Assembly: GCA_963663165.1 (NCBI GenBank)
Contig: OY760175.1
Span: 128,001-192,000, forward strand
Length of the DNA stretch: 64,000 bases
From: an uncultured Desulfospira sp.
GTDB taxonomy: Bacteria > Desulfobacterota > Desulfobacteria > Desulfobacterales > Desulfobacteraceae
Direction: 5' to 3'
A program made the translations under genes and the position numbers. Positions 12,861-18,071 of this stretch are shown piece after piece. Position 1 is the first letter of the stretch, and each line of letters begins with the position of its first letter. The notes below the pieces were generated by a model. The model saw nothing but the letters and a program-made list of their open reading frames with translations, had not been told where the DNA came from and did not search any database.

Positions 12861-12987
12861 AAAAACCGGAAACTGCAATTGGGGCTGTCCCAAAATTACA
12901 CGCTTGGCCCAGCCTTAGAGACACCTTGCTCAATGACGGAATTACTGAATCCGCCAGAAATAGTTAAGATCATGAACATTGCCCAGA

Positions 12988-15900
12988 TTAACAATCAGGC
13001 TTGCCGGTAAGTGTGTTGCTGATTAACCAGTTGTAAAGACCCTCAGCTACAGTTCGTGCCTCAGGGTTTAAACCAAACAGGAGTTCTTTTTCCTGGAAAA
13101 AAGCCTGGGCCGCAGCCGCATAAGGTTCCAGTGACATATCAAACCCATGATTTTTTAAAAAATTAAGATAAAATGTATCAAACCCAAGGTTCTTAATAAG
13201 CCTTGTAAGCCGGAGCAGGTCAACCCTGAAGACGATCCACAGTTCTATAGGGTTCTTTTCAAATACCGGCCTTAACCGGTCACAACACAAACCAGGATTG
13301 CCTTCAATTAAATCGTGTGCTGCCAGCAATAAGGCTTTACCCGGAAAGGGCAGGTTGTGAATGCTTTCCAATTGCTCCTTGAATCTGTGAATATTTTTTT
13401 GTTTTAAATTCAGCCAGAGGAGATTGGCTTTGCAAATGCTTCCATCCGGATCAAGTTTGATGGCTTCCAGATAAGCGGCCTTACTGTCTTCATCCTTATT
13501 AAGATGGTCCTGGTACAAGCTGCCCAGGCCATCCCATGGCTGGACAATTGTGGGATCAAGTTTAATGGCTTTTTTATAAACCCGTTCACTGTCTTGATAT
13601 CGGTTAAGATGCTCCCTGTACAAATTACCCAGGCCATTCCACGGGTAAGCATATGTGGGATCAAGTTCTATGGCCTTTTGGTAAGCCTGTTCGCTTTCTT
13701 CATATCGGTTAAGACGCTCCCCGTACAAATTACCCAGGCCATTCCACGGGTAAGCATATGTGGGATCAAGTTCTATGGCCTTTTGGTAAGCCTGTTCGCT
13801 TTCTTCATATCGGTTAAGACGCCCCTCATACAAATTACCCAGGCCATTCCACGGGTAAGCAGATACGGGATCAAGTTCCATGGCTTTTTTGTAAGCCTGT
13901 TCACTGTCCTCATATCGGTTTAGGTAAAACTGGTACAACCCCGCCAGATTAAACCATACGTCAGCGTTCGTTGGATCAATCTCTATGGTTTGCTTGTATG
14001 CCCGTTCGCTGTTTTCATATTGGTTGAGGTGAGTCTGGTATAAGATCCCCAGATTGAACCAGGCAGTAGGGTTCGTTGGATTGAATTTAATGGCTTTTTT
14101 GTAGGCGTGTTCACTGTCCTTATATCGTTTGAGGTGAGCCTGGTACAAGTTCCCCAGATTTAACCAAATGAGATCATTTTTGGGGTTGAATTTAATGGCT
14201 TTTTGGTAAGCCCGTTCGCTGTCTTCATATCGGTTGAGGTGAACTTCGTATAACTTACCCAGATTTACCCATATGGATACATCTGTTGGGCTGAGCCCAA
14301 CGGCCTTTTTATAAGCCATTTCGCTCTTTTCGTATTGATTGAGGTGATATTGGCACAACCCGCCCAGATTAGCCCATATAAGTGCATTTGTTGGGTCAAG
14401 TTCAAGGGCCCTTTTGTAGGCCTGTTCACTTTCATTAAACCGGTTGAGATGTCCTCGGTACAAGTTCCCCAGGCCGTTCCAGGGGAAAGAAATTGTTGAG
14501 TCAAGTTCAATGGCATTTTTGTAAGCCTGTTCACTTTCTTCATACCGACTGAGTCGGATCTGGAACAAATTTCCCAGATTGTTCCAGGCAAGTGCGGTAG
14601 TCGGGGGCATTGCCTGACAAAAGGTTAAGAATTTTTCAATATCGGCATCTTTTGCGGACTCAAAAGTTTTAGAATATAAAAAGATATCGATAAAGTCATT
14701 ATCTTCACTGCCTGACAGAACCGCCAGTGCTTCCACAGGATCGGAAAATGATGTGAGGATACCATCCCTAAAAAGAGCGGACACTTTTTTGTATGGCGTA
14801 TCACCTAATACCTTTTTGATTCGCTGGGTTTCACTATAGAGAAAATCTGATAATTTTTTTTGTTGGGTAACGTCGAAATCTTTGGCAAAGTCCGCGTAAC
14901 GCTGTTTGCTTTTTAAACTCAACCCTATCGATTCGGAGACCTGTTGGGCCAATTCCCCGGCATCTGATGGAGATGCGCCGGCGGTAATGAATCCTTGGGC
15001 CATTTTTTTTCTACGAAGGTCATGGTCCAGTATCTTGGGCTCATAGTCTTCACCGGGCAGCAGATTCTGAATGAAGTCCGGGGTCTTGCCAATCAAAGGT
15101 TTTGTCAGGGCAGTGCGAAGTGCCTGCTGAAGCGGAGCATCGTGGTCCATGGCGTGAAGAAGGGCATCGCTGTAAAGGTTCCTGCAGGTGTTCTCTCTTG
15201 CAATTAACTGCCTGGCCTGGTCCCCAAGTTCCGTTTTTGAATAATAGGTTGACAAAAACCGGCTCAGCCACTGCAACCTGAGGCGGTTGCGCCGTGTGCC
15301 GTGGCGCATGAGATACCAGATATTATAGAACCTCTCTGCCAATTGGACCCCGTTTCGTTTAGGGCCCATGGACACTCGTTCCAGCAGGCCGTCTTTTTTC
15401 AGCCGGTTTATGAGCCCTGACAATGTGGTTGGGACAATTCCGGTAGTTTTTGATATTTCGGCCGAAGAGATTGGGTCCCATGCCAGGGCCACGGCATCAA
15501 TAACCCGGCGCTGCTGCTGCGACAGTTCTTCAGTCCGGGATTTATACAGGGGGGTGGTGGTCTCAAGGACCCCCTCCAGAAGCTGTCCCATATCTCCACC
15601 GTCGTCCGGAACTGCTTTGGCTATGGTTTCAAGAACCTGGTAGATTAAAACCAGGGTCCTGGGATTGCCCCCGCACAGGGTATGCATGACCCTGATTCGC
15701 TGGGGATGGCGCTGCATATCCAAAAGGACGTCCAGTCCGGGCTTTCCTCTTGTCCGGGCCAGCCGGACCAGGCATTCCTTCATCTCATGGGAATCCAGTG
15801 CCCCAAGGTCATCCATGGAAAAAAAATCGTAAAACGGTCCTTCCCGTTGGGAAAGCTGGGGCAGATGGGTTGGCGTGCAGGCAATCATCAGGGGGGCATG

Positions 15901-16452
15901 TTTATCAAGCAAGCTTTTTCTTAAAGCCCATTGATCTGTTACCGCCAGGCTGTCAAGGATAAGATTCAGGTTGTCCACCAACAGGATCAAGCGCCTGCTG
16001 TTCGCATCAGCAACGGCACAGATGTCTCTGTACAGATCCTTGCTTGCACGAACTGCATGATCTAAGGATTCAGCCTGGGCTGGTTTTCCGTTTTTTTCAC
16101 ACCAGTCAGCCAGGGCGTCGGCACAATTTTTCCAGAAATCATTTAATTGCCCGATATTATACTGCTCTTCCCGGAAATTGAGCGGTATCCAGGCTTGGGA
16201 AAGTGTGTGGTCATCTCTTACGGCCAAAGCGATTCTTCGCAGCAGCGACGTTTTTCCCATGCCCCGTTGCCCGAACACCAGACGGTGGTGAAGAATGGTC
16301 TGGTTGCCGCTTTCTGCGATGTGGCGCAGCATTCGATTCAAAAGAGGGAGCCGGGCCACAAATGTATTGAGAAAGTCGGTTTCATTCAGTTGCAGGGGAT
16401 CATAGACAGCCATTCGGAGTGTGGTGCCGGCTTTTTCTTCGGTCACAGACAT
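12988..16452 (-). CDS. STAND-like P-loop NTPase with winged-HTH and C-terminal array of 11 TPRs
   Basis: Walker A FGQRGMGKT, Walker B LILLVDN, GGNPR motif, wHTH (ISSAEISKTTGIVPTTLSGLINRLKKDGLL), eleven 35-aa W..LG.LY...L.RY..SE.AY..AI.L.P repeats. Confidence 0.85.
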   Translation of the reverse strand: MSVTEEKAGTTLRMAVYDPLQLNETDFLNTFVARLPLLNRMLRHIAESGNQTILHHRLVFGQRGMGKTSLLRRIALAVRDDHTLSQAWIPLNFREEQYNIGQLNDFWKNCADALADWCEKNGKPAQAESLDHAVRASKDLYRDICAVADANSRRLILLVDNLNLILDSLAVTDQWALRKSLLDKHAPLMIACTPTHLPQLSQREGPFYDFFSMDDLGALDSHEMKECLVRLARTRGKPGLDVLLDMQRHPQRIRVMHTLCGGNPRTLVLIYQVLETIAKAVPDDGGDMGQLLEGVLETTTPLYKSRTEELSQQQRRVIDAVALAWDPISSAEISKTTGIVPTTLSGLINRLKKDGLLERVSMGPKRNGVQLAERFYNIWYLMRHGTRRNRLRLQWLSRFLSTYYSKTELGDQARQLIARENTCRNLYSDALLHAMDHDAPLQQALRTALTKPLIGKTPDFIQNLLPGEDYEPKILDHDLRRKKMAQGFITAGASPSDAGELAQQVSESIGLSLKSKQRYADFAKDFDVTQQKKLSDFLYSETQRIKKVLGDTPYKKVSALFRDGILTSFSDPVEALAVLSGSEDNDFIDIFLYSKTFESAKDADIEKFLTFCQAMPPTTALAWNNLGNLFQIRLSRYEESEQAYKNAIELDSTISFPWNGLGNLYRGHLNRFNESEQAYKRALELDPTNALIWANLGGLCQYHLNQYEKSEMAYKKAVGLSPTDVSIWVNLGKLYEVHLNRYEDSERAYQKAIKFNPKNDLIWLNLGNLYQAHLKRYKDSEHAYKKAIKFNPTNPTAWFNLGILYQTHLNQYENSERAYKQTIEIDPTNADVWFNLAGLYQFYLNRYEDSEQAYKKAMELDPVSAYPWNGLGNLYEGRLNRYEESEQAYQKAIELDPTYAYPWNGLGNLYGERLNRYEESEQAYQKAIELDPTYAYPWNGLGNLYREHLNRYQDSERVYKKAIKLDPTIVQPWDGLGSLYQDHLNKDEDSKAAYLEAIKLDPDGSICKANLLWLNLKQKNIHRFKEQLESIHNLPFPGKALLLAAHDLIEGNPGLCCDRLRPVFEKNPIELWIVFRVDLLRLTRLIKNLGFDTFYLNFLKNHGFDMSLEPYAAAAQAFFQEKELLFGLNPEARTVAEGLYNWLISNTLTGKPDC
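13445..14595 (-). repeat. Intragenic 105-bp tandem repeat encoding TPR units
   Basis: caaattacccaggccattccacgggtaagc recurs at 13621, 13726 and 13831 (105-bp period); the other units are more diverged. Confidence 0.9.
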
Positions 16453-17563
16453 TGGTATCTCCTCCAGTATTCACGGAGCAGCCCGAAAACAAATCGATAC
16501 TGTCCAGTGTCAGAGGCTTTGCTGATAAACCCGTCGTTTTCCAGAGAAACGATGGTGTTTCGAAGGCCGGTGATATCTATTTTGCTTAGCTTCTCATTGT
16601 TTCGAAGGGATTCCAGGCTCTCCCCGTCCGGATGGCAGCTGAGAATGTTTAACACGGCATGGGCCATTAATTTTTGCTGGTCCGGATAGTTTCGGTTGAT
16701 GTGGTCGGGCCAGTCTGAAAATATCCGGTTGAACGGATGCCTAAGCAAAGTGTCAAACGCCTGATCGATATGTGCCGCAGTAATGCTCATGCCTTCTGGA
16801 ACTTCATCTTCAATCCGGTCCAGAAAGCCTGACAAGTAGTGGGGAGCCAACCAGCCGAGCCGGGTATGCATTAAGTCATGCCCATTCTTATCCGGCTTTG
16901 GTAAATTCCGCCTGCCACAAAGGTCATTCACGAATGCGGTTGCCTGTTTCGGCGTGAGGGGCGCCAAAGGAAAAGGGTCCAGAAGGTTAAGCGTGCCTCC
17001 CAGCCCATATTGGTCAGCCACATGATCAATGCCAATGGAGCCGGTAAGTAACCACCGAATATTCGGATACTGCTGCTGGTGCTCCGAAGCCTTCTCATGA
17101 AAGCGCGGCCTTGGATTTCATCAACCGCCAGAAGGCTTGACAGGCAGACAGAAATCTCATCAATAAGAATCAGGCTTGGACGGTCGGCACTGTTCAGAGC
17201 CTTTAAGGTTGCGTTCAACATAGACTCCCAGTTTGATTTAAGCAACAGCTCCTGGTAGGTGTTTGCCGGTGTGTCCCCTTGGAGAATATCGGTTACCCGT
17301 TTGCCCAGCTGCTGCCACAAAGAAAGGAAAAATTTTTTTTCACTGATTTCTTTGCATATCCTTCGTACAGCACCCAGGGCAGTCGTTTCGGCTTCCAGGT
17401 CTACAAAAACAGCCGTAATGTTGCGGGCCTTGGCATCTTCTTCAAGTTTGCGCATCAGCCAAGTCTTTCCCAGACGTCTGGGGGCAAATAATGCCACATG
17501 CTTTCCGCGTTCAAAAAGTTGCCATAGCTTCTGCCGTTCTTTTTCTCTTTCCCAAATGGTCAT
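16443..17563 (-). pseudogene. P-loop ATPase with C-terminal wHTH-like region, split by a single-base frameshift near 17084
   Basis: Walker A FAPRRLGKT and Walker B LILIDE in ORF 17563-16928. Adding one G to cttcggagcac gives LREHQQQYPNIRWLLTGSIGIDHVADQY, continuing into ORF 17021-16443. May be a sequencing error. Confidence 0.8.
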
Positions 17564-17787
17564 TTTCTATCCTCTTTAAATAAATTCAACAATGAATATA
17601 TTTCATTTTGAATATTTTTTCAAGAACAACGTTCTTTATCCCCATCCAATCTCTCATAAAGGGAATTTCAAGATTCCCTTTATGGCGAATAAGCCGAAGT
17701 CTGAGGGAGTGGAACAGTTTTTTGCTTTACCGCTCAAACCGGGGAATTCGCAAATCCGGTCTCTCGTTTCCCGTCTCCGGCCTCCCT

Positions 17788-17881
17788 ATAACGGCCACGG
17801 GCCGCCTTGGTTATCCAACCAAGAACCGCCCACAACAAATATTGAAAGTCTTCTCAGGACGTTAGTGAGACTTTCATATAA
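17788..17881 (+). repeat. 94-nt structured dispersed repeat (copy 1), followed by a truncated tandem copy at 17878-17917
   Basis: Matches the reverse complement of 40707-40800 with 5 mismatches by eye; hairpins cttggtt-atcc-aaccaag and tgaaagtct...agactttca. Confidence 0.9.
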
Positions 17882-18071
17882 CGGTCACGGACCACAAGCC
17901 CACAACGAATAATGAAACTGAAGATACCAGCAACGGTAGACTATAAATTGGGCACCGCAGGTGCTTCGCCCTCTTGTCTCTTGTGTCTTGTCTCCAGTTT
18001 CTTATAAAAATAACCGTTTCCTTTTGATGGGAGTTCCATTATGGTATATGGACTTTCAAGTGGAGGGAATT

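Follow-up and report, generated by a model that had tools for sequence, protein, structure and literature searches.

Gene content of the locus

The window examined here is a stretch of 64,000 nucleotides from an uncultured Desulfospira sp. (contig OY760175.1, positions 128,001 to 192,000), and all coordinates below are counted from its first base. It carries a cassette of two genes, A and B, which encode two different STAND-type proteins and lie behind an operator-like site. A preliminary description of this DNA, made from the bare sequence, reported two overlapping minus-strand genes set against the orientation of their neighbours. The coordinates agree with this: gene A occupies 16443..17563 and gene B 12988..16452, both on the minus strand with an overlap of 10 nt, and the genes on either side are on the plus strand. 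The A/B pair is single-copy in the genome.

Gene A was described as coding for an ATPase of about 370 amino acids (aa) with the motifs APRRLGKT, LIDE and TGSIG and a tail resembling a winged helix-turn-helix (wHTH). In the assembly APRRLGKT (residues 27-34) and LIDE are in one frame, and TGSIG and the C-terminal half, with the wHTH, in another, with a break near 17083 where the assembly is short of one base. One extra base behind 17083 was present at full depth in contigs of all four public runs, although these runs represent at most three samples and two studies and one of them may be the source of the assembly. Both halves match a single intact 372-aa relative at 65-66%. Since the extra base is found in contigs of all four runs, gene A is taken to be intact with 373 codons, and a broken gene was ruled out, the frameshift being an assembly error. 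A code read in steps of four letters does not read through the break. The repaired product is a STAND ATPase of the SSO1545/PabY2304 type with an NTPase, a helical domain and a wHTH, and its Walker A and B motifs are canonical.

Gene B encodes a STAND-like protein of 1154 aa, and every motif attributed to it earlier was located: GQRGMGKT at residues 61-68, VDN (a DN Walker B) at 159-161, GGNPR (of the GxP type) at 261-265, a MarR-like wHTH at ~310-370 and eleven 35-aa tetratricopeptide repeats (TPRs) with starts at 623-973. In addition there is a helical arm (420-620) and a conserved C-terminal cap (1005-1145). On the minus strand the core of NTPase, helical domain and wHTH (~residues 1-410) spans 15220..16452, the TPR array (~residues 620-1007) 13430..14595 and the all-helical cap, with its NPE.R motif, 13018..13430. 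The core and cap are conserved across the family, and the array varies in length and repeat type. The structure model has a mean pLDDT (the per-residue confidence score) of 91.6 and is all-helical past the wHTH.

Motifs, folds and kinship

Alignment of 62 sequences of protein A revealed K33, D135, E136, G175 and S176 to be invariant. In the gene B family K67 and N161 are invariant, so that the DN Walker B is a trait of the whole family, while D163 is found in 94% and is replaced by N in the window copy. A DN Walker B also occurs in working STANDs. Judged from these motifs it does not establish that protein B is inactive and that A would supply catalysis in its place, and inactivity does not follow from it because the Walker A is invariant and the second Asp is kept in 94%. 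The hallmark STAND layout of P-loop NTPase, helical domain with a GxP-like motif and winged helix is present in both proteins, which by their motifs are predicted to be nucleotide-binding switches.

The core of B is homologous to the whole of A over ~350 residues (hhalign 96%, 13% identity), and on this alignment the two cores are distant paralogues. The model of protein A matched PabY2304 (2qen) and SSO1545 (2fna) end to end, with Z scores of 24.8 and 23.9 over ~325 residues. The next fold matches were NLR resistosomes and Orc1/Cdc6 at Z 17-19, followed by further matches to Orc1/Cdc6, TnsC and MuB at Z 14-18. SSO1545 and PabY2304 were also its best sequence-profile matches (E 8e-7 and 3e-4). 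A fold search with full-length protein B returned TPR proteins only, and the cap gave no lead in Pfam or the Atlas.

Pairing and family size

Among clusters at 50% identity the core of gene B had 1,326 relatives at E<1e-30 and 3,186 at E<1e-10. Pairing was scored in the best 80 of 134 confirmed genome loci of gene B and in 80 of 361 metagenome loci of gene A. An A homologue lay directly upstream of B on the same strand at 79/80 genome loci (A being broken in L018 and L071). B lay downstream of A at 68/68 scorable metagenome loci; the other 12 of the 80 end too soon, and none was found to lack B. Both genes were also present, A directly upstream of B, at 15 of 16 loci of a more distant clade that was sampled from the order and phylum to which the window belongs. 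The pairing is near-obligate, and the coupled two-gene module of the preliminary description stood up when the co-occurrence of homologues was counted. When trees were built from 61 pairs, 23 splits in that of A were strong; 21 of them recur in that of B and none is in conflict with it. Cultured carriers include Rhodopseudomonas, Azospirillum, Rhizobium and Thiococcus.

Variant arrangements were seen at a few loci. The pair is duplicated in tandem at L051:5631-11389, both B copies being short. A single protein of 991 aa (P0246) places a ParA/CbiA-like NTPase and TPRs ahead of a full A domain and was the only fused A found, a single match among 7,993 longer candidates, which is weak evidence of absence. 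The 1.9-Mb genome G009 has two pairs and an orphan B, and besides these a 1683-aa protein (L223:2163-7214) that has WD40 propellers and whose N-terminal NTPase distantly resembles that of A.

Predicted promoter and operator

The operator-like site upstream of gene A consists of two tandem dyads, in each of which 6 unconstrained bases separate a 5-bp half-site from its inverse. In the window it is a 32-bp site (17583..17614, no strand assigned) of the form TATTC-N6-GAATA with 18/20 consensus bases. It covers the spacer, -10 box and likely start site of a putative sigma-70-like promoter, TTGAAA-17-TATATT (17595..17623, minus strand), which is a consensus match only. This predicted promoter-operator is an addition to the preliminary description. 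Across the family a score of at least 18/20 was reached at 79/156 loci, and by 6/3,120 sequences shuffled locally; spacers of a length other than 6 bases do not work. The window operator is unique in the 6.7-Mb genome, scoring 34.3 bits against 20.9 for the next best site. A host regulon was looked for and no second operator was found in the same genome; this uniqueness favours self-repression over a regulon. The presence of the operator makes a predicted interaction between wHTH and DNA central to the system.

Half-sites fell into four classes, with 59 TATTC, 52 ACAAC, 18 TATAC and 3 AAAAC among 132 sites. Carriers of the ACAAC type belong to eight host groups and include one alphaproteobacterium, and the half-site therefore follows the clade of the cassette and not the host. 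Within the window's clade three of the four columns that switch together with the half-site are in the wHTH of B (334, 343 and 344). A caveat that applies to a global covariation ranking for operator specificity is that it is confounded by clade. By eye, the distant clade (L197, L198, L201, L202 and L211) has N6 dyads with the half-site CCAAC and a 15-bp period, and these dyads are sometimes arranged in two blocks flanking the -35 box.

The variable repeat region and the search for an effector

The preliminary description held that no effector is fused to B, and the homologues surveyed bear this out. None of 239 homologues, from searches that favoured proteins of 634-2020 aa, has an N-terminal extension of more than 40 aa, and the Walker A is at residue 50-70 in 117/120. 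The conserved helical cap ends B in 217/239 homologues, none of these 217 having a tail of more than 70 aa. When 15 atypical or long B tails and the non-repeat parts of the window copy were searched for a fused effector, only TPR or spurious matches were obtained. No third gene recurs among 815 clustered neighbouring open reading frames (ORFs) beyond within-genus synteny.

The middle region of gene B evolves fast, its divergence outpacing that of the core in 7/7 groups of close relatives (e.g. 98% core vs 72% middle). The repeat region ranges from 150 to 1300 residues across the family, and the repeat unit switches, being 35 aa in 31/63 and 43 aa in 18/63.

Mobility and insertion

The distribution of the cassette is patchy, with strong matches in 4/60 relatives, 0/2 same-genus genomes and 10/300 genomes of the phylum. 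In the window its approximate extent is 12870..17745 (no strand assigned), between plus-strand genes for an APH-family phosphotransferase and a DUF155 protein. In the same-genus genome G001 the cassette is absent and these flanking genes are ~110 bp apart at the same site, from which it follows that the ~4.9-kb cassette is an insertion. The vertical conservation that was named beforehand as an argument against a defence role was not seen. The cassette includes neither a transposase nor an integrase.

Its ends (~12862-12880 and 17740-17785) abut two arms that resemble a hairpin, similar to repetitive extragenic palindromic (REP) elements, which fills the empty site of G001, as if the cassette had landed in the loop of this REP-like hairpin; no target-site duplication was seen at the ends by eye. 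Upstream of the cassette, 17787-17895 and 17901-18010 are high-copy intergenic repeats (277 and 80 blastn matches in the same genome) that are absent from the empty site of G001. At L036:6307-19488 the pair is inserted in a run of tsaE-phosphotransferase, nucleotidyltransferase and addBA-like genes.

Neighbouring genes

Up to three ORFs on each side within 5 kb were scanned at 67 of the 80 genome loci (304 ORFs), 11 synteny duplicates and 2 loci without flanks having been left out, and many of the contigs are short. Of the 67 loci, 5 have clear defence genes, another 5 have genes that count as defence in a looser sense, and genes of mobile elements are present at 7. In the sample from the window's order and phylum defence neighbours occurred at 3/15 loci compared with 0/11 random loci of the same genomes (Fisher p 0.17). 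The defence neighbours of some copies include GmrSD, a type IIG restriction-modification (RM) gene, MmeI, SIR2, HEPN and Cas6. At L034:5400-16542 the pair separates hsdR from hsdM within a type I RM operon and is beside AbiEii, and a copy in an island of a Moraxella plasmid is among Qat, methylase and insertion sequence genes.

On an Agrobacterium plasmid (L098:1-14883) the neighbours of an orphan B are a pair of genes with cyclase domains, ThiF and Fic genes and a transposase of Tn3; this may be a defence locus based on signalling that has yet to be characterised. AAA_14-DUF4143 genes, of the COG1373 type, occur near the pair at two loci that are not related to each other (L046:1363-2565 and L203:187-1638).

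Interpretation and alternatives

The explanation favoured here is that the cassette is a mobile, self-repressing switch of two unlike STAND proteins directed against invaders, effector-less and with no separate weapon; for this chain as a whole the probability is put at roughly 0.4. Its parts differ in strength. It is highly probable that the operon is repressed by A and/or B, with their winged helices attached to the four half-sites. The two proteins probably form a hetero-oligomer resembling the origin recognition complex (ORC) or paired NLRs, and the TPR array would, on balance, sense a ligand and keep the complex in its off state. More tentative is the proposal that the ligand is an invader protein and that the output is the activated complex itself, acting by wider DNA binding and/or a drain on ATP by A, with derepression as amplifier.

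At rest the A-B complex would sit on all four half-sites and so limit its own abundance. A foreign protein, probably from a phage, would then bind the repeats of B, upon which the NTPase core would open, much as release of arm and sensor opens the core in PH0952/MalT according to the available text of PMC6468293. The opened A-B oligomer would leave the operator and act directly, through wider DNA binding or ATP drain. Loss of repression would amplify the response and the cell would be slowed or killed without a separate weapon. That the pair is a widespread paired-NLR system, in which one ORC-like hetero-STAND oligomer is its own repressor, the sensor of phage proteins and the effector on DNA or the ATP pool with no enzyme domain fused, is rather less likely than not; such a system would connect DNA binding of the ORC type with pattern recognition of the NLR type.

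A number of observations count against the proposed switch. Its output is a guess, because no effector domain was found. An AT-hook-like, basic RGRP tail on B would favour DNA binding, and it was found in only 37/217 homologues and not in the window copy. The suggestion that the recognition helix of B sets the half-site fails on L004, where the same helix motif goes with a perfect TATAC site; because L004 breaks the prediction, no specificity code is claimed. Four open B genes (L014, L018, L025 and L054) have no detectable TPR, and repeat collapse in assembly may explain some of these. The agreement of the A and B trees follows from linkage alone, the unit moving whole. There are orphan B genes (L078, L207, L098). 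The pair was on only 9/72,556 plasmids, and no copy was found in the phage genomes or viral contigs searched. Most copies sit between housekeeping genes, and the pooled count of defence neighbours, 8/82 loci against 0/11 controls, is not significant (Fisher p 0.35). Set against a background of 1.53%, as given in the available part of PMC13581612, the same 8/82 (a Pfam reading) has a binomial p of 4e-5, the background having been obtained by a different method, DefenseFinder. The nearness to defence genes that the preliminary description proposed to measure was seen for some copies and not as a significant excess over controls, and the context gives weak support at best to a role in defence.

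The layout of type II toxin-antitoxin (TA) modules combines two overlapping genes, a palindromic operator that covers the promoter driving them and a scattered placement among housekeeping genes, and the cassette has this layout. It could be a selfish addiction module in which one ATPase is toxic on its own and is neutralised by the other, with a complex that represses itself, the module being kept by addiction or stress dormancy and not through the sensing of phage. The weak link to defence islands would agree with this; the orphan B genes do not, a fast-changing repeat region of 150-1300 residues exceeds what a TA pair needs and plasmid carriage is rare, which leaves an addiction module unlikely. 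A STAND core and TPR sensor that lack an effector might instead be the sensor half of a defence pathway, the activated A-B oligomer recruiting a host or unlinked effector enzyme. The cap could be the docking surface, and some copies have effector-like neighbours; since it is as a two-gene unit that the pair spreads between phyla and the search for a recurring third gene was negative, this too is improbable.

Regulators with a STAND-wHTH-TPR layout exist outside defence (PMC6468293, in its available text), and the TPRs could sense a metabolite or host protein while the complex controls host genes, as in MalT/PH0952. The clear putative DNA site and the mostly metabolic or housekeeping context fit such a regulator, for which there is little room given that the genome has a single copy of the site, located at the promoter of the cassette itself, that no target genes are conserved and that the distribution is patchy. 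The fold matches to Orc1/Cdc6, TnsC and MuB point to another role, that of an initiator or mobility helper for which the adjacent repeats would be an origin or transposition end. The pair does adjoin its own repeated site and mobile-element genes are nearby at 7/67 loci, but it travels without a transposase, helicase or integrase, plasmids seldom carry it, it was not found in phages and its site overlaps a promoter, making this role very improbable.

The pair is a real, widespread and unnamed cassette. Should the self-repressing switch be right, a two-subunit receptor without an effector would have an output of a different kind and would be the bacterial counterpart of paired NLRs and of ORC. 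It is also readily testable, as the cassette is self-contained within 5 kb and has a defined 32-bp site and clade-specific half-sites.

Comparison with known systems

No named system had been matched to the pair in the preliminary description, and none has emerged since. PADLOC 2.0 and NCBIfam 20.0 gave only weak P-loop, HTH or TPR matches to the window proteins and 62 members of each family. No Avs models were among these matches, and the newest, Avs7-21, may not be in the libraries. No description of the pair was found in the literature, most subscription papers being outside the search; it may be listed as an unnamed clade among the 589 clades of PMC13581612. LypABC (PMC13236601) and the BREX STANDs (PMC12839542) were considered as its identity and are, from the accessible portions of these papers, different systems.

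The closest single proteins are SSO1545 (2fna) and PabY2304 (2qen), which share the NTPase-helical-wHTH layout with A at 14-16% identity and which are of the PF01637 type and MNS clade. Both are single proteins of unknown function whose entries have no second, TPR-bearing STAND, and the Pfam ATPase_2 score of A is below the cut-off. A related P-loop is found in COG1373, or PADLOC PDC-S01 (AAA_14 plus DUF4143), a single gene with a C-terminal nuclease-like domain. AAA_14 matched 56/62 members of A at E<=0.01, PDC-S01 matches to A were weak and DUF4143 had no match in the 62 members. Unlike COG1373, protein A ends at the wHTH, where its model stops, and pairs with a TPR-bearing paralogue.

With Avs/AVAST and bNACHT proteins, as portrayed in the available text of PMC13581612, the pair has in common an NTPase, a wHTH, a C-terminal TPR-like array (predicted to be the sensor), patchy spread and variable repeats. 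It differs from Avs/AVAST in having no fused N-terminal effector, in its two different STAND subunits, in its own operator and in a low rate of occurrence in defence islands; the bacterial NLR-like receptors described in that text typically carry an effector. The NOD-arm-TPR layout of the PH0952/MalT regulators (PMC6468293, available part) is shared with B, and Orc1/Cdc6 heteromers, with 2qby among the fold matches of A, provide a case of AAA+/wHTH DNA binding by unlike subunits. The pair is unlike either in that it has no separate DNA-binding effector domain, no regulon and no link to replication genes.

The nSTAND2 counter-invader operon of Kaur et al. 2021 (PMC8195603), in what is available of that paper, resembles the pair in being mobile and in having two STAND genes with a predicted hetero-multimer. 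One of its NTPases has eroded motifs and is fused to a GT4 or HEPN effector, and the family is close to the CR-ATPases/DAP3. PF20702 (nSTAND2) had no match in the window's own genome or in any control genome and was not among the 16 families matched by the 62 members of A. In the pair, unlike the nSTAND2 operon, both Walker A motifs are invariant and the variable part consists of TPRs only.

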